Both the position numbers and the translations under genes were made by a program. From assembly GCA_965198225.1 (NCBI GenBank), contig CBDAOY010000009.1, forward strand, positions 352,001-416,000: a stretch of 64,000 nt of DNA, read 5' to 3'. The notes below the pieces were generated by a model. That model was not told the DNA's origin. It did no database searches and saw only the letters and a list, made by a program, of their open reading frames with translations. The DNA is from Terriglobia bacterium (GTDB taxonomy: Bacteria > Acidobacteriota > Terriglobia > 20CM-2-55-15). Shown here piece by piece: positions 2,821-41,598 of this stretch; position 1 is the stretch's first letter; the number at the start of each line of letters is the position of its first letter.

Positions 2821-2842
2821 TACGTCAAGTACTACATAGTGC

Positions 2843-2875: not shown

Positions 2876-2912
2876 GTTCTGGGCAGGTTGACGCCAGCCT
2901 GCGGCCTTGAAA

Positions 2913-3385
2913 TCAGCCATCCGACCGGATCTTCTTGATTGCTTGCAGCTGATGGAGTGAAAGCTTGTCGGGCCGACCCAGGTGCTCCCGGATCGCAATC
3001 AAATCGTCGATATGGATAACTTCGAGATTCAGCCCTCAGACATTCATGTCGATCGCACGATCCGAAACCGCCAGGTAATCACCGAGCGGCTCAAGGTAAC
3101 CGATCAAGTCGAAGTCTCCGAACCTTGTAGTGAACGCAAAATTGCGCCGAGGGCGAGAGATTGCTCATCGATACGAAACGGAAGATCGGCCGGAGCATTC
3201 CTTGGACACGGCTGGAGCTGGTTCAGCGCGGCTACGAGCCTTCAAGTTCTCTGCCGACCGCTGTTGACACGAGGACTGCCGTGCAGGAGCTCGGCTTGTC
3301 CGCCGATAACATTGAACTCGACTTGGTGCGACTCCAGGATCGCCGCAATCTCTTCAAGAGCGCTCTTGTCGGTTTCGTCGGCCAT
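2913..3385 (-). pseudogene. Nucleotidyltransferase-fold protein (DUF6036/AbiEii-like), disrupted
   Basis: Manual translation: MADETDKSALEEIAAILESHQVEFNVIGGQAELLHGSPRV, then the expected TxDxD motif is missing, followed by frameshifts and an in-frame stop; later segments FTTRFGDFDLIG and IDDLIAIREHLGRPDK are typical of the family. Confidence 0.75.
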
Positions 3386-3560
3386 AGTCCAGAAGCCTTA
3401 AGGCATCGCGGCGCGCCCGGTCGCCACGACGAACGTGTTCGGTCGGAGTAAGCTGAAGGCACTCGCGGATCAGCGTCAGGTCGATCCCGTTACAGTCCTG
3501 CTCGCCGTAATCCAGACGGGAATCGTCGTCGCCCCGGTCAATCTGGCGCTTTGAGCCCAC
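3354..3560 (-). CDS. Small putative partner (antitoxin-like) of the nucleotidyltransferase
   Basis: NGIDLTLIRECLQLTPTEHVRR motif; overlaps the NTase start; GTG at 3560 after a G-rich RBS. Confidence 0.55.
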   Translation of the reverse strand: MGSKRQIDRGDDDSRLDYGEQDCNGIDLTLIRECLQLTPTEHVRRGDRARRDALRLLDYGRRNRQERS

Positions 3561-3705
3561 CCCCCTATTATGTCCGACCCTCTGCTCTTTTGGAGACCGA
3601 AAGACGAACGCGCCGGTTCCGGACATCGCCAGGGTCAGCCCTGAGGGGGTCCGTCCGCTCTGACTCGGACACCGGGCATCTTCTACCCCCTGATTCCCAC
3701 TCGGT

Positions 3706-4848
3706 TTATTGCGGGTGAGTGTCTAGGTGAGGTGCTGCGGGGTCCGGCAAGTTGAATCTGCCGCCACTCACGGACGAAGATTGATCTATGGCATTGTTCT
3801 GTAAGCCACCGCTTACCGAGGAAAATTTCCCGCTGGCAAAATTATTGGATCCGCCGCTGACGGCAGCATATTCTCCAGTGGCCCAGTTGAATGTACCGCC
3901 GGTGACGGAGGAACGAAGGGCAAAGGCGCGATTGGCATACCCGCCGCTGACCGAAGAATAGATCCCGCTGGCCGTGTTGTTGTCGCCGCCGCCCGCCCAG
4001 GAAAGGAGCCCGCTCGCCGTATTGCCTACCCCACCGCTCGCCGAGGAGGTGTGGCCACTGGCAGCGTTTTGCTGCCCGCCGCTCACCGACGAAACGATCC
4101 CGCTGGCCGTGTTGAAATTCCCACCGCTTATTGCGGAATACCAGCCGCTGGCGGTGTTTTTCGTTCCACCGGTCACCGAGGAAAAGAGCCCGTTCGTGGC
4201 ATTCAATAGCCCGACGACGATACCACCGACACTGGTGTAATTGAGGTTCTCGCCGACCACGAGCATATGAGATCCCGTTCGATCGTCGGGTCCGTTCGGG
4301 TCGTTGGGAGCTCTAGGTTCGTTATAGCCGATGATGACGTTGCCCAAGGCGTTAGTGCGCCTGGTGTCCCCCAATCCGTTGGCTACGTGCAGGTTGGCAC
4401 CGGTAATGAAGATCTCGTTTTGATCGCGACTGAAGTGAACGAGCAAATCTTGTAACTCGTCCACTTCCGGGGCCTGGTCGGCGTGGTGCTGGCCGGGGAG
4501 AACATTCGTCAGGTCGGCGTGATCCCCGCTGAAGCGGGGGCCGACTGCGCCAACAGCCTCCGCGTCCGTGTAACGTGGTTGGTGTATGGCGGTATCGTCG
4601 ATGTGCGTCCCCACCTGTCCAAGCAGGGCGTTGAGCCCTGCCTCCAGCGCGTCTACCTGAGCCTGGAGCGCGACGTTCTGCTGTTCCAGCGCGGTTACGC
4701 GAGCCGCGAGGCTGGAGCCGCCTGTTCCTCCAGTTGGCTTACCCGGTGGCTTCGGTGGTTTCCCCTGGGAAAACGCCAACGGGCCTGCAACGAGGAGCAA
4801 TACGACAACAACCGCCGTGACGGCGGACCGAACAAACATTTTCAGCAT
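3706..4848 (-). CDS. Secreted trimeric fibre/adhesin-like protein with coiled coil and 14-aa Gly-rich repeats
   Basis: Signal peptide, coiled coil (LAARVTALEQQNVALQAQVDALE), about 10 repeats of S-S-V-S-GG-x-x-N-x-A-S-G; RBS aggag before ATG 4848. Confidence 0.8.
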   Translation of the reverse strand: MLKMFVRSAVTAVVVVLLLVAGPLAFSQGKPPKPPGKPTGGTGGSSLAARVTALEQQNVALQAQVDALEAGLNALLGQVGTHIDDTAIHQPRYTDAEAVGAVGPRFSGDHADLTNVLPGQHHADQAPEVDELQDLLVHFSRDQNEIFITGANLHVANGLGDTRRTNALGNVIIGYNEPRAPNDPNGPDDRTGSHMLVVGENLNYTSVGGIVVGLLNATNGLFSSVTGGTKNTASGWYSAISGGNFNTASGIVSSVSGGQQNAASGHTSSASGGVGNTASGLLSWAGGGDNNTASGIYSSVSGGYANRAFALRSSVTGGTFNWATGEYAAVSGGSNNFASGKFSSVSGGLQNNAIDQSSSVSGGRFNLPDPAAPHLDTHPQ

Positions 4849-26870: not shown

Positions 26871-29537
26871 ATGTCGAGGCTCTACCACCTCCGGCGCGAG
26901 CTTGAATTCTCGACTCAGACCCGTCAGGGGAAGTCCTACCTGGTCGTCAAGGACCCGGTAACGAATCGCTACTTCAATTTCAAGGAGATGCAGGCCAGCA
27001 TCGTCGAACTGGTCCGGGAACCGATCGACATTGACTCGCTGGGCGCAGCGGCAGCCGCCCGGTTGGGCGCCACGGTCAAGGCGGCGTCCCTGGAAGGCTT
27101 CCTGAAATCGCTCGAAGAGAAGCACCTCCTCGACACGCCGACCGTCGCCGAAAAACTCGCCGTCTACAAAGAGCGCAAGCCACGGGGAAAAAGCCTCCTC
27201 TACATGCAGCTCGTGTCGCTCAATCCCGAGAGGGTCTTAGGCTATCTGCTGCCCAAGGTGGGGTGGTGCTTCACGCCGGCATTCAACGTGTTCGCTGCGA
27301 TCGCGATCATTTGCGGGTTCGTCATCACTTTCTTGAACGCAGGTACGTTAGCTCAGGAAACCCTTTCGCTCTTCAGCCTTCGCGGCGCGCTGATGACCTG
27401 GCTGGTCGTCGCCGCGGTGTTGACTGTCCACGAGTTTGCACACGGGCTGACATGCTGTCATTTCGGCGGCAAGGTGCAGTCGATGGGCTACATGCTCATT
27501 TATTTCAGCCCGGCCTTCTTCTGCGACGTGAGCGATGCCTGGATGTTCCCGACCCGTCGCGAAAGGATGTGGGTCACGTTTGCCGGCGGCTACTTTCAGC
27601 TCGTCATGTGGGGGCTCGCCGCGATCGCCTGGCGGGTCCTTGCCGAAGACACACTCGCCAGCGAAATCCTGCTGATCGTGATGGTGACTTCCGGAATCCA
27701 GACGCTGTTTAACTTCAATCCGCTCATCAAGCTCGACGGCTACTACATGCTGAGTGACTACCTGGAGATCCCGAACCTGCGGGAGAAAGGGTTCCGGGCG
27801 TTCCGGGCGTGGCTGGCGGGAACGGCCGATCCCCTTCTTGATACGCCGCAGCGTAAGGCGCTGCTGCGGTACGGAGCCATCTCGCTGACCTTTTCGACGT
27901 TACTGCTGTCGTTCGTTTACGTTAACATCTATCTGCTAGCGACCTCATACTTTGCTTTTGCGGGTCTGGTCGGGTTTTTGATGTTTTCGGGATACACATT
28001 GAGACGGACGGCGGCAGAACCGGTGGCAGGCGTTCGATCATTGATCACACGCGCGATGCTCCGCAAGTTCCGAAACTTCGGTGTAGGAGCGGCGGCGGTG
28101 CTGGCGATGATCATCGTCCCATGGGAGCTGAAGATTTCCGCCGATTTCCGAATCCTGCCGCTACAGGAATCGATCGTCCGCAGCGAAACCGCGGGTACCG
28201 TGGCCGAAGTGCTGATCCGCGAAGGAAGCCGCGTCGAGGCCGGCGAAGTGATCGTCCGCTTGTATGACTTCGACAAGCAGAAGGAGTTGGAAACCGTCTC
28301 GGGCGAACTGGAGCAGAAACAGGCCGAGTTGGCTCAGCTCCGGGTCGGGCCACGCACGGAGGAGATCGACCAGGCCGAAAAGCTCGTCGACACGAAGCGG
28401 GTCGAACTGGAGAACATCCGGAGAAACGTCCAACTCCAGAACCAGCTCGAGCAGGCGCTCACTACCAGGCAGACGGAACTGAGGCTCGCAGAAATCGAGT
28501 TACGGAGAACGACCGACCTTTTCATAGAGGAACTTGGTTCGAGGGTCGACATGGAGAAGGCACAGGCCACTGTGGAAGTCCGCCGCAGCGCGGTCGCGGA
28601 AGCCGAAGCGTCGGTTCAGATTCTGGCCGAGAAGAACGACCGCGAAGAAGACCTCAAGACCCGGGAACTTGCCGAGGCCGAGAGCGCGCTCGCGCTCCTG
28701 CGCGCCGGTTCGCGGCCCGAGGAAATCCAGCAGCGGGAAGCTGAAGTCAACATGCTGGAAGCCCGGCAGCGCATCCTGGGCGAAGAAATCAAGAAGAGCG
28801 AAATCCGCGCGGGAATTTCGGGAACGGTCACGACCCCGTTTGTCCAGAAGATACTCAACCGTCACCTGCAGGCCGGCGAAGAGGTCTGCCGCATCGTTGA
28901 CATGGACCGCGTCCGCGCCGAGATGTTCGTGCCGGAGCAGGAAATGGGTGATGTATCCGGAGTTAGCGTCGCGATGACGATGGAAGCAAGGGCACAGGAC
29001 GTCCGGGAACTAGACGTCACTCTCACTTTTCAGGGTGATGAGGTTCGGTTGGACGTCCCCGCTCTTGGCGCCGTCTACGTCGGGGCACTGGACAAGGGCG
29101 GCGAAACGATATCCGGGACATGGAGACATGCGGATGCTCAGCTCCCGCTCACCTTCGATAAGGATAAGATGGATTCGGAGGCGATGGCTGGTTCGTCGAG
29201 CGCCACCACCGCGTTGGCGGGAGTGTGGGACGGAACACTCGGCGAGGGGAAACTGAAGCTTCGGTTCGAGCCGGGCATGCCGGTCCGACTGAAAGCGCGC
29301 AGCTTCCCGACCCGCGAGTTCGAGGGCAACGTCGACTTCATCGCACCCGTAGCCGAGATGGTGGACAACGCGCGCGTCATCAAGATTCGAACCGAGCTGG
29401 ATAACGGCGACGGGATGCTCAAGCCGGACATGACGGGCGTCGCAAAGATCCACGCCGGCCGCCGCCAGGTCATCGCGCTGATGACCCGCCGCATAATCCG
29501 CTGGTTCCGAACTGAATCCTGGTACTACCTCCCCTGA
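26871..29537 (+). CDS. PqqD/RRE-like + M50 zinc metalloprotease + HlyD-type membrane-fusion protein
   Basis: N-terminal beta3-alpha3 pattern (YLVVKDPVTNRYFNF...FLKSLEEKHLL); HEFAH and NFNPLIKLDGYY M50 motifs; lipoyl-like half motifs, long coiled coil and LKPDMTG barrel. Confidence 0.9.
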   Translation: MSRLYHLRRELEFSTQTRQGKSYLVVKDPVTNRYFNFKEMQASIVELVREPIDIDSLGAAAAARLGATVKAASLEGFLKSLEEKHLLDTPTVAEKLAVYKERKPRGKSLLYMQLVSLNPERVLGYLLPKVGWCFTPAFNVFAAIAIICGFVITFLNAGTLAQETLSLFSLRGALMTWLVVAAVLTVHEFAHGLTCCHFGGKVQSMGYMLIYFSPAFFCDVSDAWMFPTRRERMWVTFAGGYFQLVMWGLAAIAWRVLAEDTLASEILLIVMVTSGIQTLFNFNPLIKLDGYYMLSDYLEIPNLREKGFRAFRAWLAGTADPLLDTPQRKALLRYGAISLTFSTLLLSFVYVNIYLLATSYFAFAGLVGFLMFSGYTLRRTAAEPVAGVRSLITRAMLRKFRNFGVGAAAVLAMIIVPWELKISADFRILPLQESIVRSETAGTVAEVLIREGSRVEAGEVIVRLYDFDKQKELETVSGELEQKQAELAQLRVGPRTEEIDQAEKLVDTKRVELENIRRNVQLQNQLEQALTTRQTELRLAEIELRRTTDLFIEELGSRVDMEKAQATVEVRRSAVAEAEASVQILAEKNDREEDLKTRELAEAESALALLRAGSRPEEIQQREAEVNMLEARQRILGEEIKKSEIRAGISGTVTTPFVQKILNRHLQAGEEVCRIVDMDRVRAEMFVPEQEMGDVSGVSVAMTMEARAQDVRELDVTLTFQGDEVRLDVPALGAVYVGALDKGGETISGTWRHADAQLPLTFDKDKMDSEAMAGSSSATTALAGVWDGTLGEGKLKLRFEPGMPVRLKARSFPTREFEGNVDFIAPVAEMVDNARVIKIRTELDNGDGMLKPDMTGVAKIHAGRRQVIALMTRRIIRWFRTESWYYLP

Positions 29538-29678: not shown

Positions 29679-29782
29679 GCCTTTGTAAAACGGCAAATTC
29701 GTCGAAAGACGAAGACGCAAAGCCACAAGGCTACAATCCCTTGAGGTTCGGATGGGATCATGCCGGTTGGGTTGCCAAAGGC
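29679..29782 (+). ncRNA. c-di-GMP-I (GEMM-I) riboswitch aptamer 1
   Basis: GGCAAA-TTCGTC-GAAA-GACGAA-GACGCAAAGCCAC...GGGTTGCC; P1 gcctttg/caaaggc; canonical G20, A47, C92 equivalents. Confidence 0.9.
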
Positions 29783-29835
29783 AGGGAAGTGGCAAACCGG
29801 CACGGAGCCTTCTGCCCTCCTCACCGAGAAGAATT

Positions 29836-29953
29836 CTCTGACAGATGCAAATCCGTCGAAAGGCGGGGCCGCAAAGCTTCGAGACCACCGGTTCGTCGGT
29901 TGATCTGTGGATCGGCCGGATAGATCACGTCGGTCGCGCTGCCTGACTAAGAG
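29836..29953 (+). ncRNA. c-di-GMP-I-like riboswitch aptamer 2 (U20 variant)
   Basis: TGCAAA-TCCGTC-GAAA-GGCGG-GGCCGCAAAGC...GCGCTGCC with an extended P3; T in place of G at position 20. Confidence 0.75.
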
Positions 29954-30014
29954 GTTCCACCTCGGGCTCACCTTTTCTTTTTTGCAACGAATCGAGAACT
30001 GGAGGTAGCTGGCT

Positions 30015-30038
30015 ATGTACGGCGTGATTTGGGTCTAG
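30015..30038 (+). CDS. Candidate 7-aa micropeptide MYGVIWV
   Basis: Strong SD GGAGGT 8 nt before ATG; first ORF after the riboswitches; followed by the hairpin acgacgtc-tcgcg-gacgtcgt (30062-30082). Confidence 0.45.
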   Translation: MYGVIWV

Positions 30039-30119
30039 CCCACACTAGAACTGGAAGTGATACGACGTCTCGCGGACGTCGTTTGAGGATCTTAACTCCG
30101 TCCGTCCCTGGAGAATAGA

Positions 30120-30212
30120 ATGAGTGAGAATGGTGTTATCCTGATCGATATTGAAATCGAGGAACTGGAACAGAAGATTGCCCCGAGTGGTTACTTGGCC
30201 AATGATGACTGA
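30120..30212 (+). CDS. Candidate 30-aa precursor peptide MSENGVILIDIEIEELEQKIAP-SGYLANDD
   Basis: SD GGAG before ATG; acidic leader ending in EELEQKIAP; followed by the hairpin gccgcgagc...gctcgcggc (30221-30253). Confidence 0.75.
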   Translation: MSENGVILIDIEIEELEQKIAPSGYLANDD

Positions 30213-30279
30213 TTGAGCTCGCCGCGAGCAAAGAGGCGTCCTCTAGCTCGCGGCTGCGACGTCTGTTTGGCCTCGCGAA

Positions 30280-32769
30280 GTGACGTGGAATAAGCTCACA
30301 GTCCAGGCGAAGGCATACCTCCGGAGCGTCTATGCAATAGGCGCTCTGCTGTCCTTTGTCTGCATGGCTGCGCCCGCCCGTATTTCAGAAACCCCTAATC
30401 GATTCGACTCCGAATGGGTTTTCCTGACACTGGTCTCGCTCTTTGTCGCGACGGTTACGGTTCGCTTACCTAGAACACCGTCCGCCGTGATATCGATCGG
30501 TGACGTCTTTACCATCCTGGCACTACTCCAGTTCGGCCCGGGACCCGCGCTCGTCATGTACTGGAGCCAGATCATCATCCTAATTGCAACCGACCAGGTG
30601 AAACGGCGTGGATGGCGGAGCTTCGTTCGAGTATCGGCCCTTTATCAACACTTCTTCTACTACAAGCACCTGTTCAACCTCGCCACGTGCGCGCTATCGA
30701 TCTCGGCCATGAGCGTGGCGCTGATGACGGCCGATCTGATTGGCCTGTCCGATCCCCTAGGTTTTGCTGTCAAACTTGCAGCCCTTGCAACAGTATGGTT
30801 TGCAGTCAATACGGGCACACTCTCTCTGGCGATTGCGCTTTTGGAAGACAAGTCCTTTTGGAAGACTTGGTTTGACGGCGTCAGTCTGTATGTCCTTAAT
30901 TTCTTTGGCTCGGCGGCGGCGGCGGGCTTGATGTCTCAGTTCTATGAACAGGCCGGTTTCTCGACTTTCCTGTTCGCCCTACCCATCGTTGTGGTCTTTT
31001 ACCAGCTCTACCGGTTCTACATCGAAAAGTTCGAGCACGCCCGGGCACACATTGCCGAGTTGAACAAGCTCTACCTCCAGACGGTCGAAGCGCTCGCGAC
31101 CGCCGTCGATGCGAAAGACCGCTACACCCACGGCCACATTCGACGCGTCCAGTGCTACGCGATCGAGCTGGCAAGGCGGATGGGAATGACCGACGAGTGG
31201 GACTTGATGGCCATTCGGTCCGGCGCCTTACTTCACGACATCGGGAAAATTGCGATTCCCGAGTATATCCTGAACAAGCCGACAGTGCTGACGGAGTCCG
31301 AGTTCGAAAAGATGAAGATTCATCCGTCGATCGGCGCCAGCATGCTCAAAGGCATCGAGTTCCCGTTTCCGGTTGAACCCCTGGTCAAGTCCCACCACGA
31401 GCGCTGGGACGGAAAAGGCTATCCAGAAGGGCTCAGCGGCGAAGAAATCCCGCTTAGCGCAAGGATCCTGTCGCTGGTCGACTGCTACGACGCCCTGACG
31501 ACCAATCGTCCATATCGCGCCCCCATGTCTCGCGACCAGGTCATCGAGTTCTTCCGGCGGGAGTCCGGAAGAGCCTATGATCCAGAGGTCGTCGAGACAT
31601 TCGTCGCAAACATCGGGAATTTGGAGGAGGAAGCCACAAAGATCGAAATTCCCGACTCTGATATCTGGGGAGGGCTCACCGTCGAGCGAAGGGTGAGCGA
31701 GAACGTGCGAGCCCTGGAGAAGGTGCAACCCACCGTCACGTACAGCGACGCAATGAACGTCACCCCGTTTGCGCAGACCGAACTCTACTCGGTCTTCGAG
31801 TTCGTACGTGCGGCAAATTGCCTCCGCACGGATGACGTCCTCGCCTTCATCGGGATCAAGCTCAGGAACTTGATCCAGTTCGACGCCGCAGTTTTCTACC
31901 TCGCGGATCTCGATCGCGGTGTTGTCGTCCCGTCGCATGTGTTGGGGCGGATGGGGGATGCCATCAAGGAGGGTGTACCCCTTCCGCTCGACCAGAAGCT
32001 GAGCGGGTGGGTCGCGGCCAACAACCAGGCCCTGCGCAACCTGCCGCCGTTCCCGGATTTCAGGAACTTCCACGATCCGAAGCCGCGGTTTGAGATCTCG
32101 AGCATCGCCCCGATGAACCATCGCGGCATCGTCGTCGGGTCCCTGGCACTGTACCGGGAAGCGAAGGAGAACTTTTCCGACCTGGAATTTCGGCACCTGG
32201 AGATTATTGCCGCGCAGGCCGCGGTCGCCTTGAATCGGGCTCGCGAACAAGAGGGCACCGAATCCGCGCTCTTCGACGAGCTCACCGAACTGCCGAACGG
32301 CTACCAGATGTACCTGATGTTCGATCAGGTCGCCACAGATGCGCTACGCTATGAATACCCGTTGGCGCTGATGGCCTTCCGGTTGGACGAGTTCGCGGAG
32401 ATCAAGCGACGTTATGGACATCTCAGCACAGCCGAAGTCGTGAGGTTCATCTCGCGCTATCTGAAGGACGAAGTCCGGGATACGGACATTCTCGTGCGTT
32501 ATGCGGACGACCAGTTCCTGACGCTGAACCCCAAAATGAGCCGGGATCAATCGGAGGTTCTAAAGTCCAGAATCCAGAGCGAGCTGGACCGGCACAAGTT
32601 CATGATCCGCCACGGGATCGAACTGGCGCCAAGGGTCTCGATCGGCATCGCCGAGTTCCCAGAGGAAGCCACAAAGCTCGAGGACCTGCTTTCCATCGCC
32701 GAATGGCGCCTCACGGAAGACGAGCGACTCCGGTCGATGGCTCGCCGGACACTGTCTTTCCCCTCCTGA
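30280..32769 (+). CDS. Membrane-sensor HD-GYP c-di-GMP phosphodiesterase with GAF and degenerate GGDEF domains
   Basis: About 7-8 N-terminal TM helices; KDRYTHGH, LHDIGK, HHERWDGKGYPEGL, DCYDALTTNRPYR; GGDEF site reads RYADDQF. Confidence 0.92.
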   Translation: MTWNKLTVQAKAYLRSVYAIGALLSFVCMAAPARISETPNRFDSEWVFLTLVSLFVATVTVRLPRTPSAVISIGDVFTILALLQFGPGPALVMYWSQIIILIATDQVKRRGWRSFVRVSALYQHFFYYKHLFNLATCALSISAMSVALMTADLIGLSDPLGFAVKLAALATVWFAVNTGTLSLAIALLEDKSFWKTWFDGVSLYVLNFFGSAAAAGLMSQFYEQAGFSTFLFALPIVVVFYQLYRFYIEKFEHARAHIAELNKLYLQTVEALATAVDAKDRYTHGHIRRVQCYAIELARRMGMTDEWDLMAIRSGALLHDIGKIAIPEYILNKPTVLTESEFEKMKIHPSIGASMLKGIEFPFPVEPLVKSHHERWDGKGYPEGLSGEEIPLSARILSLVDCYDALTTNRPYRAPMSRDQVIEFFRRESGRAYDPEVVETFVANIGNLEEEATKIEIPDSDIWGGLTVERRVSENVRALEKVQPTVTYSDAMNVTPFAQTELYSVFEFVRAANCLRTDDVLAFIGIKLRNLIQFDAAVFYLADLDRGVVVPSHVLGRMGDAIKEGVPLPLDQKLSGWVAANNQALRNLPPFPDFRNFHDPKPRFEISSIAPMNHRGIVVGSLALYREAKENFSDLEFRHLEIIAAQAAVALNRAREQEGTESALFDELTELPNGYQMYLMFDQVATDALRYEYPLALMAFRLDEFAEIKRRYGHLSTAEVVRFISRYLKDEVRDTDILVRYADDQFLTLNPKMSRDQSEVLKSRIQSELDRHKFMIRHGIELAPRVSIGIAEFPEEATKLEDLLSIAEWRLTEDERLRSMARRTLSFPS

Positions 32770-32927
32770 CTTTCTCTTTGTCCGACAAAAGTCGCGTTTT
32801 TTGCGTTCCTTGTTCCGCCAAAGCGCGATAAATTGTCGCGGCTCTCGTTCTAACAATCTCCAGATGCTGAATGACAGCTCTGGCACCGGCAGTGCTGGTG
32901 ATCTGACGGGAGGAAGGCCCTCAATCA

Positions 32928-35900
32928 TTGCAGCGTTTCCTGACAGATCGCTTCGAAGTTCGCCGAATCCTCCGCCGCTCGAAGCACGTGACGTCGTTTG
33001 TGGGACACGACCGTTGGTGGGGACGGGACGATGTCTTTGTGAAGTGCATCCGAAGTCGAGCGTGCTGGATCGACCCGGCTTTCCCGGAATCACTGGCTCG
33101 CTACCGCGGCCTGGTTCACCCGCTGATCGGGAACATCTACGACGCCGGGTTTTCCCCAAGGAAAGACTTCTACTACGTACGACACCACGCGGCTCAAGCG
33201 GAGAGTCCCGCGAGTCCCGCACAACTCCTGCGAGTAGCTCCCCAGATAGTCGCCGCCTGCGCCTTGCTTCATTCAAGAGGTCTGGTCCACGGTCGGATCA
33301 AGCCAAACAACATCATCGTCCACGATAGCACCTGTCACGTTGTCGACGGTGGACTCCCACCTCTGCACGAATGGAATCTCGATGTGGACGACGTCCACTA
33401 CCGCGCACCGGAGCTTCTGGAAGGGGGTGAACCAACTATCGAGACCGATCTCTACTCACTCGGTGCGGTACTGTACAGGGCTTATTCAGGTCGCACTCTA
33501 TTTGAAGATCCCAGCATCGAACTTCTCAGAAACAAGTACGCCAACGCGAAACCTGAGCCTCTGAACAATGTCTGCGATGCGCCGAAAGCCGTCAGCGATC
33601 TCGTCCTGGGCCTGGTCGGCCGGAACTCGAAGGCAAGAAAAGAGGTGTTCACGGATGTCCTGAAGCTCTTCCCTGCTAGCTCAAGCCGCGTGATGCACGC
33701 GCCGTTTGTGGGTCGAGAAAGAGAGTTGCAGGAAGCGATAGAGCTTCTAGGTTCGAGTGGTCGCGACATACGGCTGCTGGTTGTCGAGGGAGAGGCTGGT
33801 GCCGGAAAGACAAGGCTGGTCGAAGAGCTCGGGTTTCGTCGCGCCCTCGCTTCCAGCGACTTCTCAGTCGGCCGGAGCTTTGAGAGGGAAAACCGTCAGT
33901 TCGAGCCGCTTCTTCAGGTGTTCTCCCAGAAGTTGGACCGGCGCGATGTGCTTTTCAAACGCTGGGAGGCGGCCGAGTTTCCACGCTTTCGTCACTCTCT
34001 GGATCACCTTCTGTCAGAAACGCTGGATGAGGGGCTGCCGCACGGGCTGTCTGCCGGCAAACTCGTGACAGACCTCGTGGGAGTGACGATTTCTCTAACC
34101 AATCAGGCACGGCGCAGCACTGTTGTTCTCGAAGACGCGCACTGGGCCGACGAAGGCACGCTCAAAGTACTCGAACAAATCCTTCTTCGCGGGGAGGAGG
34201 CGAACCTCTGCTTTCTCCTGACCGCCCGGTCGGGTGAGATTCAGGGACCGCTGCGCCGGTTGCTGAGCGGTCCGGCACCTTCCGGAATCACAATCCATCG
34301 AATCTCGCTCGAACCGCTGACTGCGACCGCGGCTCTCAGCCTTGCTGAGAGTCTTTGCGGCAATGCGGGGCACGCCGCACGGATCGTGGAAAAGGCCTGC
34401 GGAAACCCACTGTTCCTGGAAGAGTACTCCCGACACCGAAACATCCGAGGCAAGAGTCAGCCATCCAGCGTAAAGGATGTGCTCGTCGACAAGGCGACGA
34501 GTCTGACCAAAGGGCTCAGAGGTGCTATCGAGGCACTTTCGCTCTTTCCGAAACCCATGTCCTTCGACGAAGCAAAGGGCGCGATCGCGTCTCTGGTACC
34601 TCGGCCCGATGGGCAACTGGAAGAGCTGCTCGAAGCAGGCATTGTCGTGTCGGACGGTTCAAACATCCGGTTTCGTCACGACGGGATTCGGGAAGCGGTG
34701 TACAAGAGACTAGCGCTCAAGCGCCGCCGACAATTTCACCAAACCGTATGCGACCGGCTCCTTCAAGAGCCATCCGACGACGAGGCCATTGGATATCACG
34801 CCGAACGGGCCGGCTTACCCAAGAAGGCCGCCCGGGCCTACATCGCTGCCGCGGACCGCAATCGTGAGCATCACAATTACCAGACTGCAGCCGAGCTCTT
34901 TTCCTTCGCGCGCAGGTGTTTTGTCCGCTCTAGGCAGAAGGTGCCTCATTCGTTGGACCTGTCGTACAGCCGCTGCTTGATGTCGATCGGAAGAAAGTAC
35001 CACGCGCGGAAGCTTCTCCATCGAATCGTAGCGACTAGCACCGATCACGGCGTTCGGGCCCTGGCATACGGCTATCTCGCCGGCTCTTCGCCGGACGATC
35101 CCGAATCGTGTCTGGCATTCTTTCGCTCACAGCTAGCGGAACTCCCGAAGGGATCGGACAAACTCTCCTCGGTACACTTGGGCCTGTCTCAGGCTCACGC
35201 TGTCGCCGGGCACGCCCGGGAAGCCACGAAGTGCCTTTCGAGCGCCGAACGACTATTCGCAGGGAATTCCGATGCGACGAGGCTTCGGTCATTTCTTGCC
35301 ATAAAGGGGGTCGTTCTCATTGCGCTTTGCGAGTACCGGCAAGCGTTATCCGTATTGCCCAGCCAGGCTGTCGGAGACCATCAACCTCGCGTTCTAAACA
35401 ATAGAGCCGTATGCATGGAGCATCTCGGCCAGTTGGATGCAGCCTGTGCGTACCAACGCGAAGCACTCGACCTGTCTCGCCGCCAAGGCATGCTGGAAGG
35501 GGAACTGCTGTCACTTGCTAACATCGGCGCTTTCGAAACCAAGAGGGGCAACTTCGAACTAGCTGCGAGCAGTTTCCGGGAGGCTGAAAGTTTCTGTGCT
35601 TCCATGAACCTTTATCGAGACGGGGATCGGAAAAATCTGCCGCTCCCCGCTGCCGATCAGGCAGCCCTCCGCATGGAAATGGGACAATACGCCGAGGCGC
35701 GGAAGCTGTTCGTGTCGGCTTTCAGATGGCTCAAACGGGACCGCTCGAGCCAGAGCGCGATCTGGGCCGCCCTGAAACGGAGCGAGTTCTACACGCGAAC
35801 TGGTGAGATGCAGCTTGCGGCACCGGTCATCGATTCCGTTAGCGCCAGCGAGCTCTTTGACACCGACTTCCTGAAGGTGGAGCGGGCCCTGATCGAGGCC

Positions 35901-37973
35901 ATTTTACTCAGGCTCCCTGAAATAGACCGGCTTCGGCTTCTCGACGCCGCCCTGCCACTCACCGCGTCTCTCGGTACGCTCTACCAGCGCTGTCGCGTCC
36001 TGATCGAGTCGGCGGCGCTTCTAATCGACGCGGCGCGTGACGAAGAGGCCCGGACGCGCGTCGCGGAGGCTCTGAAGCTGGCTCGGCGACACGGATACAG
36101 ACCGCTCGAAGCAAGTGCTTTGCTAATCAAGGGTTCAGTAACACGGAAGAAGCGCGCCCGGCATGAATACCTGCTACAGGCTTACCGGATCGCGTCCGAT
36201 ACCCCGCTGCCGGAAATCGCAGCCGAAAGCGCGCTTCGGATCGGAGAGCATCAGCTTGAATTGAATAATCTTTTCAACGCGCGTGAATACCTGTCGCGAA
36301 GCGTCTCTTTGACCAAGTCGCTGGCGGGCGGATTGCCGGCTCGGGCTCGAAATCGTTACCTTCTCGTTCCATGGAGGCAGCAAGCGATGAAACTACTGGC
36401 CAGCGTCGAGAATCAGCTACCTGCTCCCGGACGTCCAACCCCGATAAAGGACCCTCAGGATCGCCCGCTCTTCAAAGTGGCTTACGAAACAACGATGTCT
36501 CTCGGCGCTGCCAAGGGGGTCGAAGAGTACGTTCGTGCCTTGAACGGCGGGATCAAACGGGCGCTCAAGTGCAACGTCGCGTTCATGCTAACCGCCCGAG
36601 ACAAGATCGAGTTTCACGCTCTGGAAGCCCCGCCTGACGACGGCCTATCCAGAACGCTTTCCAAACTGTACGACAAGGTTCAGGACGGTCCTTTCTTCGG
36701 TCGAAGGGAAAATGTTCAAGAACGGGGTTCCGACAGAAGCGGCACAATGGCGTGGATTCCGCTGACAGCAGCCGGCTCCCGACTCGGAGGTCTGTATGTC
36801 AACATCGGAAAGAGGAGATTCAGCGAAGCAGAAATGGAGTTTCTTACGATGATCGGAATCATCGCGGCGAATGCGCTTGCCTCAATTCTGGCGTCTGACC
36901 ACCTGCCTCGCCAAAAGCGTCGCAAAAGATTCCATTACAAAGATATTGTTGGGGTTTCACGGGAAATCGAAGAAGTATGCGCCCAGATCGAGATTGCCGC
37001 CGGCAATCCTGCCACCGTGCTCATCGAAGGTGAGAGCGGAACGGGCAAGGAACTGGTAGCCCGGGCTATCCATGACCACAGCGCGCGGCGCGCGGGGCCG
37101 ATGGTGACTGTCGATTGTGGTTCGATCCCGGAAACGCTGATCGAGAGTGAGATGTTTGGAAGTCGACGGGGATCATTCACCGGAGCCACGGCGGACCGTC
37201 GGGGCCTGATTGAATCTGCCCACAGGGGAACGCTGTTCCTCGACGAAATCGCGAATACCAGCCCCGCCCTGCAGGCCAAACTTCTTCGAGTGCTGCAGGA
37301 GAAGGAGGTACGACGGCTCGGAGAAACCAAGGGCCGGGCCGTCGACATCCGTCTTTTGGCCGCGACCAACGCAAACCTCGAAAGGCTGGCTGAACAAGGT
37401 CAATTCCGCCAGGACTTGTATTTTCGGTTGAAAGTCCTGTACATCCAGATCCCTCCCCTCCGCGAGCGAAGGAAAGACATTCCTGAAATCGCACGCGCTT
37501 TTCTCCGGCAGCTAACCCAGGCCAACGCTACGAACAAGCGCTTCGGTCGCGGGATTCTGGACCGCATTGCGGCCGGACACTACCCTGGTAATGTTCGGGA
37601 ACTGCAGAACCTCGTGGAGCGCGCCTACTTCTCGGCAACCGCCGGCGACACGATCAAGAAGGTATCCATCGAAGTTGTTCCGGCTCGGCGCAAGGACTCA
37701 AATGAAGTCCAAGCCTGGTTCAAGGACCTGACGGAAGGACGCAAGGACTTCTGGGTCGACATCCACGCCCGCTACAAGCAACGCGACATTTCTCGCGAAC
37801 AGGTCATTGCGTTGATGGGCCTCGGCTTGAAGGAGACGCGCGGATCTTATAAGTCTGTGGGTGAACTGTTCCATGTCCAGGAGAGTGACTATCGACGCTT
37901 CATGGATTTCCTCCGCCGCAACAAGTGTCAGCCCGATTTCAGACCGTATCGAAGGTTAGAAGGCCCACGCTAG
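32928..37973 (+). CDS. Multidomain sigma54 activator: pseudokinase + STAND-type P-loop + TPR + GAF-like + AAA+ + atypical HTH
   Basis: HGRIKPNN/DGG/YRAPE/DLYSLG kinase remnants; FVGRERE, GEAGAGKT, LEDAHWAD, GNPLFLEE; GESGTGKE, GSFTGA, YPGNVRELQN; C-terminal TRGSYKSVGELF..DYRRFMDFL. TTG start is uncertain. Confidence 0.9.
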   Translation: MQRFLTDRFEVRRILRRSKHVTSFVGHDRWWGRDDVFVKCIRSRACWIDPAFPESLARYRGLVHPLIGNIYDAGFSPRKDFYYVRHHAAQAESPASPAQLLRVAPQIVAACALLHSRGLVHGRIKPNNIIVHDSTCHVVDGGLPPLHEWNLDVDDVHYRAPELLEGGEPTIETDLYSLGAVLYRAYSGRTLFEDPSIELLRNKYANAKPEPLNNVCDAPKAVSDLVLGLVGRNSKARKEVFTDVLKLFPASSSRVMHAPFVGRERELQEAIELLGSSGRDIRLLVVEGEAGAGKTRLVEELGFRRALASSDFSVGRSFERENRQFEPLLQVFSQKLDRRDVLFKRWEAAEFPRFRHSLDHLLSETLDEGLPHGLSAGKLVTDLVGVTISLTNQARRSTVVLEDAHWADEGTLKVLEQILLRGEEANLCFLLTARSGEIQGPLRRLLSGPAPSGITIHRISLEPLTATAALSLAESLCGNAGHAARIVEKACGNPLFLEEYSRHRNIRGKSQPSSVKDVLVDKATSLTKGLRGAIEALSLFPKPMSFDEAKGAIASLVPRPDGQLEELLEAGIVVSDGSNIRFRHDGIREAVYKRLALKRRRQFHQTVCDRLLQEPSDDEAIGYHAERAGLPKKAARAYIAAADRNREHHNYQTAAELFSFARRCFVRSRQKVPHSLDLSYSRCLMSIGRKYHARKLLHRIVATSTDHGVRALAYGYLAGSSPDDPESCLAFFRSQLAELPKGSDKLSSVHLGLSQAHAVAGHAREATKCLSSAERLFAGNSDATRLRSFLAIKGVVLIALCEYRQALSVLPSQAVGDHQPRVLNNRAVCMEHLGQLDAACAYQREALDLSRRQGMLEGELLSLANIGAFETKRGNFELAASSFREAESFCASMNLYRDGDRKNLPLPAADQAALRMEMGQYAEARKLFVSAFRWLKRDRSSQSAIWAALKRSEFYTRTGEMQLAAPVIDSVSASELFDTDFLKVERALIEAILLRLPEIDRLRLLDAALPLTASLGTLYQRCRVLIESAALLIDAARDEEARTRVAEALKLARRHGYRPLEASALLIKGSVTRKKRARHEYLLQAYRIASDTPLPEIAAESALRIGEHQLELNNLFNAREYLSRSVSLTKSLAGGLPARARNRYLLVPWRQQAMKLLASVENQLPAPGRPTPIKDPQDRPLFKVAYETTMSLGAAKGVEEYVRALNGGIKRALKCNVAFMLTARDKIEFHALEAPPDDGLSRTLSKLYDKVQDGPFFGRRENVQERGSDRSGTMAWIPLTAAGSRLGGLYVNIGKRRFSEAEMEFLTMIGIIAANALASILASDHLPRQKRRKRFHYKDIVGVSREIEEVCAQIEIAAGNPATVLIEGESGTGKELVARAIHDHSARRAGPMVTVDCGSIPETLIESEMFGSRRGSFTGATADRRGLIESAHRGTLFLDEIANTSPALQAKLLRVLQEKEVRRLGETKGRAVDIRLLAATNANLERLAEQGQFRQDLYFRLKVLYIQIPPLRERRKDIPEIARAFLRQLTQANATNKRFGRGILDRIAAGHYPGNVRELQNLVERAYFSATAGDTIKKVSIEVVPARRKDSNEVQAWFKDLTEGRKDFWVDIHARYKQRDISREQVIALMGLGLKETRGSYKSVGELFHVQESDYRRFMDFLRRNKCQPDFRPYRRLEGPR

Positions 37974-38329: not shown

Positions 38330-38998
38330 ATGGAACCGGTGGTAAAGGTCTCCGGCGTCCGAAAGGTTTACGAGGGGGAAGGCGAACCGGTTGTTGCGTT
38401 GAACGACGTCTCGCTCGAGGTCGACTCCGGCGAATTCGTTGCCCTGATGGGCCCCAGCGGCTGCGGCAAATCGACCCTCCTGCACATCATCGGCGCGATG
38501 GATCGTCCGTCGGCGGGCAAGGCCTGGATCCAAGGCGCGCCCATACACAACCTACCCGAAGAAGAGCTGACCGGAATCCGTCGCACACGAGTGGGCTTCG
38601 TGTTTCAGTTCTTCTACCTTCTGCCCACGCTCACGCTTGAAGAAAACGTCGCCTTGCCCCTGTTGCTCGCGAACGGGCGGCATGTGGATTCGGACCGGGT
38701 TCAGGCCCTGATTGAAACCGTCGGCCTGACCGACCGGCGTTCAGCAACCCCGAACCAGCTCTCGGGTGGGGAAATGCAACGGGCTGCGCTGGCAAGAGCA
38801 GTCGTCCACCGGCCGCCGCTCGTCGTGGCGGACGAACCGACCGGCAATCTGGATTCCGATAACGGTCGCGTGATCCTCGAGCTGCTCCGGAAGTTGTCGA
38901 GAGAGGGCACGACCGTCGTCATGGCCACCCACAGCGATGCGGCTGCCGCGTACGCGGCGCGTGTGTTACGCCTGAGGGATGGGAAACTGGTCGAATGA
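38330..38998 (+). CDS. ABC transporter ATP-binding protein (LolD/MacB-like, AttE-like)
   Basis: [26 protein letters not shown]. Confidence 0.95.
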   Translation: MEPVVKVSGVRKVYEGEGEPVVALNDVSLEVDSGEFVALMGPSGCGKSTLLHIIGAMDRPSAGKAWIQGAPIHNLPEEELTGIRRTRVGFVFQFFYLLPTLTLEENVALPLLLANGRHVDSDRVQALIETVGLTDRRSATPNQLSGGEMQRAALARAVVHRPPLVVADEPTGNLDSDNGRVILELLRKLSREGTTVVMATHSDAAAAYAARVLRLRDGKLVE

Positions 38999-41598
38999 CG
39001 CGCTTTGCCCGGCTCTTCCACCGCTACATCCTCCGCGATCTCGCGCGCAATCCCATCCGGACGCTCCTCACCCTGACCGGGGTGGCGCTGGGCATTGCGG
39101 TCGTCGTCGGGGTGCACGTGGCCAACGACCGGGCGATCTCCTCGTTCAACGACTCGCTGCGGATCCTGAGCGGCCAGGCCGACCTTCAGATTTCTGCCAA
39201 CGGGCTGCAACTGGACGAGGAGCTGATCGGCGAGCTCTCCTGGGTCTGGGACGTGGGCGCGATGACGGCGATCGTCGAAGGCCGGGTCGACCTGGACGCC
39301 TCGCCCAACCCGATCGAGCGGCAATCACTCCGGATCTTCGGTATCGATCTGCTATCCGACGCTCCGTTCCGAACCTACACACTCACCGAAGGCGACGACC
39401 TCGGCCTGGACATCACCCGTGAGCAGTTCATCGACTTGCTGGTTGAACCCGACACCATCATCATCCCCTCACTCCTGGCCGAAGAGTTCGCCCTCGGCGT
39501 CGGCGACACGATTCAATTCCTTGTTTCGAACCGCTGGCGGGACTTTCGGGTCGGCGCCATCCTGCAGGACGAAGGCGTGGCCGAAGCCTTCGGCGGGCGG
39601 ATCGTTTTCATGGACATCGCCGGAGCGCAGACGGCTCTGAACAAGATCGGTTGGATCGACCGGATCGAAGTCCTCCTGGACGACCCGGCGCTGGCGGATG
39701 CGGTCGAAGAGCGGATCCGAGTCCAACTCCCTGCATCGGTCATCGTCTACCGGCCCGAAGAGGCCGCCGCCTACAACGAAAAGATGGTCCGCGCCTTCCG
39801 CTACAACCTGACCGCGCTCTCCTACATCGCCCTCGTCGTCGGCATGATCCTCGTCTACAACACGCTGAACATCGCCGTCGTTCGGAGGCGGGCCGAAATC
39901 GGCGCGCTCCGCACGTTAGGAACTTCGCGGACGACCATCAAATGGATGTTCCTGATCGAAGCGACCGCCTTCGGTGTGATCGGCGCCGCGCTCGGGGTCT
40001 GGGGGGGGGAGTTCCTCGCCGCTGCAGCCGGTGCTCTGGTGTCGCAGACCATCTCCGGGCTTTACACCGGCGTCGCCGTCATCCCGTCACTGACACGCTC
40101 CGACCCTATCTTCTACATCGAGATGCTGTTGCTCGGCGGTGTCCTGGCGGCAATCTCGGGAACGGGGCCCGCGCTGCGGGCCACCCAGGTCTCGCCGGTG
40201 GGCGCACTGCGCGAGAACGTCCTCGGCACTATTCGCGCAACGCGGCTGCGGGTTCAGGTCTTCGGCGGAATCGGTGCGCTGATCCTCGGTACCGTTCTCG
40301 CACTCGGTCCGCCGATCGAAGGTTTCCCGTTTCTCGGGTACGCATCGGGCGTGTCGTTCATCGCCGGCTTCGGACTGCTCTCACCCCTGCTCGCACGGAT
40401 GCTTCTAAAACTGATCCGGCGCCCGTTAACGACGGCGCTTCCGGCCGAAGGTCGCCTGGCCGTCCAGACGATCGAAGGTAGTCTCGGCCGGGTCGTCGTC
40501 GCGGTGATGTCGCTTGCGATCGCCGTAGCGATGCTGATCAGCGTGGCGATCATGGTCGCGAGCTTCCGCGACACGGTGATCGTCTGGATCGACCAGACCT
40601 TGAAGGGCGACCTCTACCTGCGTCCGGCCGCGTTCGGCAGCAACGGGGGGCGGAACGTCCTGGAGAGCGAGACCCTGCACGTGCTCGAAACCATGCCGGC
40701 GATCGAAGCCATCGACCGGTTCCGCTCGATGACGATCGACTACGGAGGCTTCCCTGCCTTCCTGGCTGCCGGAGAGTTTGGCACCGTCGCTTCTCACAGC
40801 AACCTCCTCTTCATGAACGGCCGCCAGACGGCGGCGGTCGCCAAACGGTTGATCGGGGCCGACCGCGTGGTCGTTTCCGAGCCCTTCGCCGTACGGCACG
40901 GGGTTCGTGCGGGCGATCGGATCATGCTCCCGACCCCGGCAGGGATGGAGCCGTTCGAGGTCGAAGCCCTCTTTTATGACTACTCATCAGAGGGCGGGCT
41001 CGTAGTAATGGATCGTGGCACGTACCTCACGAAATTCGAGGACCCCGACGTCAGCAACGTTGCGCTCTACCTGAAACCCGAGGCTGACCCGATCACGACC
41101 CGAGCCGAGATCGCGGCCGCGCTCCCCGACACTCAGCTTCGGATCGCAACGAACGGCGAGCTGCGGGGGCAGGTGTTGCGCGTCTTCGACCAGACGTTCC
41201 AGATCACCTACGCCCTGGAGGTCATCGCGATGGCCGTAGCGGTGCTGGGAATCGCCAATACGCTAGCCGCGCTCATCATCGAGCGCCGTCCCGAAATCGC
41301 CATGTTGCGATTCATCGGGGCCGCACGGTCACAAATTCGCCGGGTCGTCGTCCTGGAATCGGGCCTGATCGGCGTGCTCGGCGGCGCGATCGGCCTGGTC
41401 CTGGGCATCCTTCTGTCGCTGCTCCTGATCTATGTCATCAACTTCCAGTCGTTCGGCTGGACCATCCAGTTCACAATGCCGCTGGGCTTTCTGGCGCAAG
41501 CGCTTGGGGTGGTGCTGGTCGCCACCGTCGCGGCCGGGCTCTACCCGGCATCACTGGCACTGAAGATGGATCCGATCAAGGGGATCCGGGCGGAGTAG
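38995..41598 (+). CDS. ABC transporter permease (duplicated MacB-PCD/FtsX, AttF/G-like)
   Basis: Two FtsX-like halves (RRAEIGALRTLG, RRPEIAMLRFIG), VINFQSFGWTI; ATGA overlap with the ATPase gene. Confidence 0.92.
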   Translation: MTRFARLFHRYILRDLARNPIRTLLTLTGVALGIAVVVGVHVANDRAISSFNDSLRILSGQADLQISANGLQLDEELIGELSWVWDVGAMTAIVEGRVDLDASPNPIERQSLRIFGIDLLSDAPFRTYTLTEGDDLGLDITREQFIDLLVEPDTIIIPSLLAEEFALGVGDTIQFLVSNRWRDFRVGAILQDEGVAEAFGGRIVFMDIAGAQTALNKIGWIDRIEVLLDDPALADAVEERIRVQLPASVIVYRPEEAAAYNEKMVRAFRYNLTALSYIALVVGMILVYNTLNIAVVRRRAEIGALRTLGTSRTTIKWMFLIEATAFGVIGAALGVWGGEFLAAAAGALVSQTISGLYTGVAVIPSLTRSDPIFYIEMLLLGGVLAAISGTGPALRATQVSPVGALRENVLGTIRATRLRVQVFGGIGALILGTVLALGPPIEGFPFLGYASGVSFIAGFGLLSPLLARMLLKLIRRPLTTALPAEGRLAVQTIEGSLGRVVVAVMSLAIAVAMLISVAIMVASFRDTVIVWIDQTLKGDLYLRPAAFGSNGGRNVLESETLHVLETMPAIEAIDRFRSMTIDYGGFPAFLAAGEFGTVASHSNLLFMNGRQTAAVAKRLIGADRVVVSEPFAVRHGVRAGDRIMLPTPAGMEPFEVEALFYDYSSEGGLVVMDRGTYLTKFEDPDVSNVALYLKPEADPITTRAEIAAALPDTQLRIATNGELRGQVLRVFDQTFQITYALEVIAMAVAVLGIANTLAALIIERRPEIAMLRFIGAARSQIRRVVVLESGLIGVLGGAIGLVLGILLSLLLIYVINFQSFGWTIQFTMPLGFLAQALGVVLVATVAAGLYPASLALKMDPIKGIRAE

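Follow-up and report, generated by a model that had tools for sequence, protein, structure and literature searches.

The stretch analysed here, a 64,000-nucleotide (nt) segment of contig CBDAOY010000009.1 from a Terriglobia bacterium (hereafter the window), carries a 30-codon open reading frame (ORF) flanked by two large genes on the forward strand. Upstream lies the gene of an 888-amino-acid (aa) protein in which a RiPP (ribosomally synthesised and post-translationally modified peptide) recognition element (RRE), an M50/site-2 metalloprotease and an HlyD/MacA-type adaptor are fused; downstream lies the gene of an 829-aa HD-GYP membrane protein. Two cyclic di-GMP (c-di-GMP) aptamers and a seven-codon micro-ORF occupy the space between the protease gene and the short ORF, and a large kinase-sigma54 regulator gene follows the HD-GYP gene (Table 1). 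We read the short ORF as the precursor of a c-di-GMP-gated, leader-cleaved and exported short peptide signal, and give this reading a probability of roughly 0.55.

The precursor ORF runs from the ATG at 30120 to a TGA ending at 30212 and encodes MSENGVILIDIEIEELEQKIAPSGYLANDD. A first-pass annotation, made from the letters of the window, had proposed a small precursor-like peptide with a ribosome-binding site and a 3′ hairpin, and all of these elements are present. The CCGTCCCTGGAGA context of the ribosome-binding site was found again in related loci. The 3′ hairpin has a folding energy of -30.7 kcal/mol (z -2.04, with 10 of 200 shuffled sequences equally stable) and a weak U tract behind it; a simple terminator scan, which counts loops of 3-8 only, did not flag it. 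When a loose regular expression for the leader motif was run over six frames of the 6.4-Mb genome, four places matched, and only the one at 30120-30212 is a short ORF.

Short ORFs with the invariant leader (I/V)EELEx(K/R)(I/V)AP, followed by a hypervariable core, form a family in Terriglobia (Acidobacteriota), and this ORF is one of them. A tblastn search with the 30-aa peptide matched 28 of 60 related genomes, including 25 of 33 from the same family and two of four from a second family, and all 20 loci fetched from these matches contain a short ORF with a ribosome-binding site and the leader motif. An alignment of 33 peptides shows no variation at M1, E14, L16, E17, A21 and P22, and differences at all positions after Pro22. 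Among 68 distinct DNA versions, the ten leader-motif codons show mean diversities of 0.17, 0.10 and 0.54 at codon positions 1, 2 and 3, with little or no variation at the first two in the codons for E, E, L, E, A and P, whereas the six codons after Ala-Pro are diverse at all three positions (~0.26-0.75). Given this difference in codon-position diversity, the leader is, as judged from the DNA comparison, under purifying selection and the core free or diversifying. The first-pass annotation had noticed the acidic leader and had named a conserved leader with a variable core, and purifying selection on the leader, as its tests; conservation stops exactly at Ala-Pro and the leader varies mostly at third codon positions. 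On comparative evidence the 30-codon ORF is a real gene. A chance ORF that is never translated would agree with its shortness and with the lack of any family model matched above threshold, yet is hardly credible in the face of the codon-position pattern, the conserved ribosome-binding site and the recurrence of the ORF in dozens of genomes and metagenome contigs.

Cores encoded beside the protease gene are only 6-11 residues long and mostly acidic, and 22 of the 31 distinct short cores end in D or E. They differ even within a genus: the sequence is SGYLANDD here and SGSLAVDK in another genome of the same genus. Sampling limits how far the distribution of the leader can be described. When the leader alignment was run against one genome per species, 478 stretches fitted the pattern and only three of them passed a tblastn check against the first sequence; this outcome yields no usable picture outside the phylum. 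In a phylum-wide sample, 7 of 401 genomes match at E <= 0.01, two of them (L055, L057) in long ORFs and probably falsely; this sample, with 18 candidates scored per genome and few close relatives, is no measure of absence.

Some family members depart from the common form. A record from another phylum (L052, Gemmatimonadaceae) has a short ORF ending in ...DFSVEELEQRIAPTGGTYTGHGWDLSANKAG, with no protease homologue in the 8 kb covered. The genome studied here encodes a second member, MEPKNNEGFELELELIIEELEPKIALGDDDWGGFPGGGPWG (G000:C5:27757-27831, locus L060), which lacks a riboswitch and has Ala-Leu in place of Ala-Pro, a change that may have made it uncleavable. The orthologous precursor of G002 (L031/L003), which belongs to the same genus, has Met for Lys at position -4 and has lost its stop codon, gaining about 20 residues, and the protease gene of G002 changes frame around residue 356; these changes point to decay of the system there or to errors of assembly. 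The protease gene is likewise split in G015, G020, G021 and G027.

Table 1. Features of the peptide locus, in window coordinates.
Feature	Position	Strand	Basis or remark
888-aa fusion: RRE, M50/site-2 metalloprotease, HlyD/MacA adaptor	26871-29537	+	profile and structure matches
c-di-GMP-I aptamer 1	29682-29779	+	Rfam RF01051, 76.2 bits (gathering score 35), E 6.5e-15, full model 1-87
c-di-GMP-I-type aptamer 2	29837-29947	+	RF03167 (GGC-variant), 44.8 bits, E 5e-9
Expression-platform remnant: short GAGG/CCTC hairpin, then T run	29951-29984	+	comparison with related loci
Micro-ORF MYGVIWV and stop (ATG TAC GGC GTG ATT TGG GTC TAG)	30015-30038	+	GGAGG at 30001-30005
Hairpin between micro-ORF and precursor gene	30061-30083	+	like-placed hairpins in closest relatives only
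Ribosome-binding site GGAGA of precursor gene	30110-30114	+	5 nt before ATG
Leader region, aa 1-22, ending IEELEQKIAP	30120-30185	+	conservation, codon pattern, modelled interface
Predicted core SGYLANDD (aa 23-30) and stop codon	30186-30212	+	hypervariable among relatives
3′ hairpin of precursor gene	~30221-30254	+	folding energy
829-aa membrane protein: transmembrane N-terminus, HD-GYP, GAF, GGDEF	30280-32769	+	Pfam HD_5 2e-37, GGDEF 4e-25, GAF
Sigma-54-promoter-like site TGGCAC-N5-GTGCT (TGGCACCGGCAGTGCT)	32881-32896	+	47 nt before regulator gene
1681-aa regulator: Ser/Thr kinase, STAND (AAA_16) NTPase, TPR, sigma-54 activator AAA+	32928-37973	+	domain matches

The neighbour that the first-pass annotation had named as an RRE-M50 protein indeed combines an RRE fold with an M50/site-2 protease, and is in addition fused to an HlyD adaptor. 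The RRE occupies approximately aa 1-105 and the adaptor approximately aa 420-888. The protease part contains HEFAH at aa 187-191 and NPLIKLDGYY at aa 283-292; H187, E188, H191, N283, P284 and D289 are invariant in 25 homologues, and the sequence thus carries the HExxH and NxxPxxxxDG motifs. NCBIfam NF041824 (daptide_HExxH) matches aa 29-374 with E 6.7e-70 and 236.1 bits against a cut-off of 300, and by this profile comparison the 888-aa protein is a clear homologue, not an equivalog, of the daptide leader peptidase. Pfam Peptidase_M50 scores 25.1 bits, just under its cut-off of 27.2, and Pfam PqqD scores 19.8 bits on aa 25-87 (E 0.001, cut-off 23.4). The adaptor half gives above-threshold matches to HlyD_D23 (63.4 bits, cut-off 30) and a match of 53.6 bits to HlyD_3, as well as profile matches to EmrA (1.9e-22) and MacA (3e-17). 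An AlphaFold2 (AF2) model of aa 1-125, built from 47 sequences, has a pLDDT (predicted local distance difference test) of 82.3, with strands at 12-18, 21-28 and 33-37 followed by helices. Nine of the ten best rows from a Foldseek search of this model in PDB are chains of RRE-bearing RiPP proteins, for example PqqD, TbiB1, MibB, TigE, ThcOx and LynD. The top match is PqqD (5sxy; E 1.8e-3, TM-score 0.63), and the lasso-peptide B1 chains with leader 5v1v (TbiB1, matched also as 5v1u) and 6jx3 have TM-scores of 0.72-0.73; all E-values for the model are above 0.001, and the TM-scores of 0.63-0.73 are to small targets.

Homologues with all three parts number at least 1022 in a large protein collection. 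They are mostly of ~788 aa and, where named, are called "putative peptide zinc metalloprotease protein", "AcrA" or hypothetical. The protein studied here is about 100 aa longer, owing to an extra segment in the adaptor at aa 699-800 (window ~28965-29270) that has further copies in the genome at C6:193364-193570 (71% identity) and C4:237242-237442. The genome also encodes a 719-aa RRE-protease paralogue of 26-28% identity (G000:C6:790085-791674, L022), which several relatives have kept; the regular expression found no leader-motif peptide beside it.

We modelled the complex of protease residues 1-420 and the peptide, both supplied as alignments, in three runs with three controls. The runs scored 0.62, 0.66 and 0.69 (median 0.66), and the best of the three controls 0.00. 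They share at least 71% of their contacts, and the pLDDT of the partner is at least 55. Of 80 solved complexes, 58 attain this score mark, as do 2 of 110 mismatched pairs; the calibration is rough, since own alignments were used. In the models, peptide residues 5-23 contact RRE strand 33-38 and helices 65-84 as well as E188, H191 and residues 281-305 of the protease, which supports binding of the leader to the RRE and the predicted active site.

The leader and the protease both resemble parts of the daptide system. According to the main text of the daptide preprint, daptides have the leader motif ELExMEAP, in which Pro is numbered P(-1) and after which the leader is removed, and their MpaP/DapP protein is an RRE fused N-terminally to an intramembrane site-2 protease (bioRxiv 10.1101/2023.03.08.531785). 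The peptide studied here has ELEQKIAP at aa 15-22 and shares E(-8), L(-7), E(-6), A(-2) and P(-1) with the daptide motif as given there, differing by K and I at -4/-3 instead of M and E; its protease has the same N-terminal fusion of RRE and site-2 protease. From the daptide numbering, the point at which conservation ends and the complex model, we infer that the precursor would be cleaved after Pro22. That the adjacent RRE-protease cuts the precursor under guidance of the leader is very probable on comparative and modelling grounds.

Judged by these motifs and profiles, the closest described relative is the daptide system, not ammosamide as the first-pass annotation had suggested. The ammosamide/lymphostin leader model NF033737 gave a sub-threshold match (E 0.013, 15.6 bits against 30) in 4 of 33 family peptides, aligning leader residues 9-22 weakly with model positions 10-23, and the LanB-like aminoacyl-tRNA ligase genes of that system are not nearby here. 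The peptide is nonetheless not a daptide, since it lacks the C-terminal Thr and no modifying enzymes were found among the scanned neighbours. Where daptides, as the preprint describes them, have an invariant C-terminal Thr, this peptide ends in Asp, and only 2 of 67 distinct family peptides end in Thr; daptides have about 20 aliphatic core residues, as against 6-11 acidic residues here. No DapB/C/D/M-type genes lie among the neighbours scanned, the protease carries an HlyD adaptor, and the genes stand behind a c-di-GMP riboswitch and a micro-ORF and are linked to HD-GYP and sigma-54 regulators. The same preprint lists Actinomycetota, Bacillota and one Pseudomonadota cluster in its main text, where Acidobacteria go unmentioned (bioRxiv 10.1101/2023.03.08.531785). 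In the literature searched, this leader was not reported outside daptides, and the RRE-family datasets of the daptide paper may hold related entries.

The peptide could alternatively be a further modified RiPP, daptide-like or other, whose tailoring enzymes come from other parts of the genome. Leaders of the RRE type mostly serve modifying enzymes, the leader and protease are of the daptide type, and there is the sub-threshold likeness to the ammosamide/lymphostin model; against this, Thr-ending peptides are rare, the only RRE found sits on the protease, and no tailoring gene occurs among the scanned neighbours or in the conserved synteny (a genome-wide search was not made). We regard such a product as improbable. 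Two other comparisons were considered. A double-glycine leader of the C39 type, suggested by the E-L spacing, was rejected in view of the absence of Gly-Gly and of a C39 transporter. The YydF/YydH epipeptide system is similar in that a membrane HExxH protease matures a small exported peptide, but here there is no radical SAM epimerase and no ATP-binding cassette (ABC) transporter in the conserved set; the YydH/LiaK model NF058609 matches the 888-aa protein with E 2e-9 and 37.5 bits against a cut-off of 225.

The genes between the protease and the HD-GYP protein stand behind a predicted c-di-GMP riboswitch, which, like the micro-ORF, had escaped the first-pass annotation. Aptamer 1 scores above the gathering score of RF01051 (clan CL00126) and is placed by this sequence match in the c-di-GMP-I family. 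At least one aptamer lies at the same place in 14 of 17 loci of one set and in 6 of 10 class-A loci of another; two are present in L002, L003, L005 and L013 and one in L009, and in relatives the second aptamer passes the RF01051 gathering score (66.2 bits in L002). No c-di-GMP-I aptamer was found in nine loci with unlinked paralogues or in eight distant or second-family loci. A strong hairpin with a U run behind it is seen in 9 of 14 loci, and its 5′ arm consists of the terminal bases of aptamer 2 (GGGCUGCC). Ligand-bound aptamer 2 should withhold this arm and prevent termination, and the element would thus be an ON switch. Tandem c-di-GMP-I riboswitches are known, for example Bc3-5 of Bacillus thuringiensis, which as described likewise has two complete class-I aptamers in series in a 5′ leader (PMC4759541, PMC12452182). 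The target differs: it is here a 7-codon ORF and a 30-codon precursor gene, followed by a c-di-GMP phosphodiesterase gene. Two metatranscriptome runs contain related sequence in small shares (0.07 for X1, 0.04 for X2). In X1, one 355-nt contig, 90-95% alike, spans aptamer 1, aptamer 2 and the micro-ORF (29720-30050); it is the sequence of a relative and does not imply transcription. X2 has short pieces on aptamer 1 only, and neither run covers the precursor ORF.

The micro-ORF has the general form of M, 0-4 variable residues, [YFCL][GA]VIW[VI] and stop, 56-104 nt before the precursor gene, and is present in the genome loci and in 20 of 22 metagenome loci with a precursor. Its diversity is 0.09, 0.16 and 0.41 at codon positions 1, 2 and 3 in 25 distinct versions, with several synonymous codons used for Val, Ile and Gly. 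The synonymous variation and the use of TAA, TAG and TGA as stop at the same place make the micro-ORF look translated and constrained, as far as DNA comparison can tell. A six-frame search of the whole genome gives a single match to [GA]VIW[VI]-stop. A metagenome contig (L082, ~2675-3830) carries four tandem cassettes of micro-ORF and precursor behind one aptamer pair. The hairpin at 30061-30083 has like-placed counterparts that differ in sequence and are not conserved in the wider family; the micro-ORF-to-precursor spacers of related loci share no hairpin, and the fold of 29935-30125 is no better than that of shuffled sequences (z 0.96).

The VIW element is found in three genetic formats. Most loci have it as a free micro-ORF. 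In five loci without the micro-ORF (L011, L069, L070, L072, L098) the precursor itself starts with MKENYGVIW or a close variant ahead of the leader. In the second family (L043, L150, L151, L152; G058, G050, G042, G034), where micro-ORF and riboswitch are absent, the cores behind the leader are NVIWAN, NVIWVS, NILWGV and NVIWTGN. Its presence in all three formats may mean that VIW is the ancestral active ligand. The element could serve as a further peptide ligand, could act on the protease, or could be an arrest peptide that works in cis.

If both small ORFs were cis-acting upstream ORFs, their translation would tune the HD-GYP gene and their products would have no function. Both do lie in the 5′ region of that gene, behind the riboswitch, and extra micro-ORFs are found directly before the HD-GYP gene in L085 and L044. 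Arrest peptides are conserved in their C-terminal residues up to the stop codon, and so is the micro-ORF. The precursor, with its fixed leader and free core, is the reverse of an arrest peptide, however. Its leader is placed on the RRE by the complex model, whose controls are clean, and is also borne by unlinked peptides that have no downstream partner gene; the second-family peptide gene precedes the protease gene and not the HD-GYP gene. A purely cis-acting role for both ORFs is accordingly quite improbable.

A secreted peptide signal is favoured by the genes to which the precursor is linked. The order ClpB, QueA, protease, peptide, HD-GYP/GGDEF and kinase-sigma54 regulator is kept in five genome loci (L030, L031, L036, L039, L044) from three genera of the first family. 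Among metagenome data, 80 contigs with the protease were found, and we counted as close those with at least 44% identity and at least 900 nt downstream. A precursor follows the protease gene in 22 of these 26 close loci, and the HD-GYP gene comes next in all 20 metagenome loci with at least 300 nt beyond the precursor. The regulator is syntenic in the genome loci and in ten metagenome loci. The check set by the first-pass annotation, a search for small ORFs of this kind near M50-HlyD or HD-GYP genes, thus turns out positive in many related loci. The second family (G058, G050, G042, G034) has the order regulator, peptide, protease, followed by the HD-GYP gene in three of four loci; in G058 an S8 protease (subtilase) gene precedes the HD-GYP gene, and the G050 stretch showed no HD-GYP gene. 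The G058 set is flanked by SBP_bac_5 and BPD_transp_1 (Opp-like) genes. Of 60 relatives, 26 have both peptide and protease, 2 the peptide only, 7 the protease only and 25 neither; these counts come from related, non-independent genomes, and the regular expression later found the peptide in two of the seven protease-only genomes. Among distant protease homologues (30-40% identity), a motif peptide lies upstream in 9 of 32 contigs, with long and repetitive cores.

The same leader also occurs on paralogues (L032-L035, L041, L042, L045-L047) that have no protease gene nearby. They occupy a conserved position bordered by an aconitase-family gene and by PTPS/LigD genes, frequently as pairs and with strong ribosome-binding sites, and their cores are such as GETVWPFPGPGNPWGGH or DGGETVLPL with a basic tail. 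Genomes such as G012 and G005 have only these unlinked paralogues and a protease gene with no adjacent peptide. The distance of the paralogues and the arrangement in such genomes suggest, from gene position, that the protease also serves substrates encoded elsewhere.

These paralogues bear on the possibility that the product of the same cleavage and export is an effector, an antimicrobial, surface-active or matrix peptide, with the neighbouring regulators merely controlling its production. The unlinked cores are long and Gly-rich, basic or repetitive (GETVWPFPGPG..., DGGETVLPL...KRP, GSHGSK repeats) and look more structural or antimicrobial, and daptides are described in the preprint as membrane-active and haemolytic (bioRxiv 10.1101/2023.03.08.531785). 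The protease-linked cores, by contrast, are short and mostly acidic, the gene set includes no conserved immunity gene, and its tight linkage is to signal-transduction genes and not to genes for resistance or transport. An effector is for these reasons unlikely, if the likeliest of the alternatives to the signal.

The HD-GYP protein contains the HD and HHExxDGxGYP motifs, which are invariant in 17 orthologues. Its GGDEF active-site motif is degenerate (ADDQF), as it is in all first-family orthologues compared, and the RxxD site is kept; the second-family HD-GYP protein has a canonical GGDEF. The simplest reading of these motifs is a c-di-GMP phosphodiesterase that carries a regulatory domain. 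Sigma-54-like sites scoring as high as the one before the regulator gene number four in the window on both strands, and this site is weakly kept outside the closest relatives; standing before an activator gene, it may serve autoregulation. Directly after the regulator gene lies a MacB-type ABC transporter (ATPase and FtsX/MacB_PCD permease, of the acidobacterial duplicated-permease kind; 38330-41598). It was considered as a conserved export partner and rejected, being adjacent only in this genus and G020 and not in G032 or G023. The large ORFs scanned over ~18.3-45.4 kb further include a zinc-ribbon protein, Cpn60, ClpB, HSP20, QueA, the ABC/FtsX genes, a CrtC-like and a DUF5916/CBM9 protein, beside the protease, HD-GYP and regulator genes; a few ORFs matched no family.

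Computation supports the ORF family with its selection pattern, the domains, the riboswitch and the synteny; the cleavage site, export, switch polarity and signalling are proposed on that basis. We propose the following course of events for the peptide signal. At high c-di-GMP the two-aptamer leader RNA would allow expression of the micro-ORF and the precursor, and probably also of the downstream HD-GYP gene. The RRE of the 888-aa fusion would then bind the 22-residue leader, and the predicted intramembrane zinc site would cut at or next to Ala-Pro, as in daptides, releasing the acidic peptide SGYLANDD. The fused periplasmic adaptor would help this peptide leave the cell. Outside, the peptide could act as a secreted signal that feeds back through the membrane HD-GYP enzyme and the kinase-STAND-TPR-sigma54 activator. 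Such a role for the peptide, for which we put the chances slightly short of even, is suggested by the sensor and regulator genes linked to it, by the riboswitch, by the absence of nearby tailoring or immunity genes and by short cores that vary among close relatives. More doubtful, though conceivable, is a complete Terriglobia c-di-GMP peptide circuit, in which the riboswitch turns on both the VIW micro-ORF and the acidic leader-guided peptide, the fusion recognises and cuts the latter and helps export it, and the HD-GYP and/or TPR proteins sense the peptides and close the loop.

Several observations weigh against a gated and exported signal. The NCBIfam and Pfam matches to protease and RRE lie under curated cut-offs, and the outcome of the complex model may partly reflect likeness to RRE-leader complexes already solved in PDB. 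In this genome aptamer 2 scores below the RF03167 gathering score of 59 and the outer stem of the terminator is degenerate and non-complementary, so that gating may be weaker here than in relatives, with polarity and strength both uncertain. No consistent sigma-54 promoter precedes the peptide genes in 31 loci. The linkage has gaps: ClpB, QueA, protease and peptide are kept in G027 and G015 and the HD-GYP and kinase regulator genes are absent beside the peptide, and in 4 of the 26 close metagenome loci (L071, L092, L093, L103) the protease has no adjacent peptide. The gene set contains no conserved ABC or other pump. Finally, tailoring enzymes might be encoded elsewhere, although the absence of aminotransferase, dehydrogenase, methyltransferase, radical SAM, YcaO and LanB-type genes from the scanned neighbours and the conserved synteny speaks for an untailored peptide.

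A functional parallel to the proposed peptide signal comes from streptococci and enterococci, in which the M50 protease Eep processes short hydrophobic pheromones; after export these re-enter the cell through Opp and bind to TPR-type RRNPP receptors. Here, too, very short peptides go together with an M50 protease, the last six residues of the micro-ORF are the hydrophobic YGVIWV, the gene set includes a TPR-bearing regulator, and Opp-like genes flank one second-family locus. The differences are the outer membrane, recognition by leader and RRE in place of a signal-peptide-like precursor, and a regulator that is a kinase-STAND-sigma54 activator and not an RRNPP protein. The literature searched offered no report of such peptides beside an M50-HlyD fusion, nor of riboswitch-controlled peptide genes in Acidobacteria.

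Peptide communication is well known in Gram-positive bacteria and rarely documented in bacteria with an outer membrane; Acidobacteriota are among the commonest soil bacteria. The literature searched contained no peptide-communication system of this kind in Acidobacteriota. The principle of a leader, an RRE and a site-2 peptidase is already known, and the regulatory context may be new in kind if the circuit is real. Daptide chemistry is apparently not the only setting of the daptide-type pair of leader and RRE-protease, which seems to serve as a general "cut and release" module on peptides with no sign of tailoring. The second-messenger riboswitch would have an unusual target, in that the first genes under its control are ORFs of 7 and 30 codons. 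Genes such as the micro-ORF and the precursor escape standard annotation, and the micro-ORF would rank among the shortest conserved coding sequences with evidence of selection. As a compact and conserved gene set with testable parts, the locus would offer an experimental handle on peptide communication in outer-membrane bacteria.

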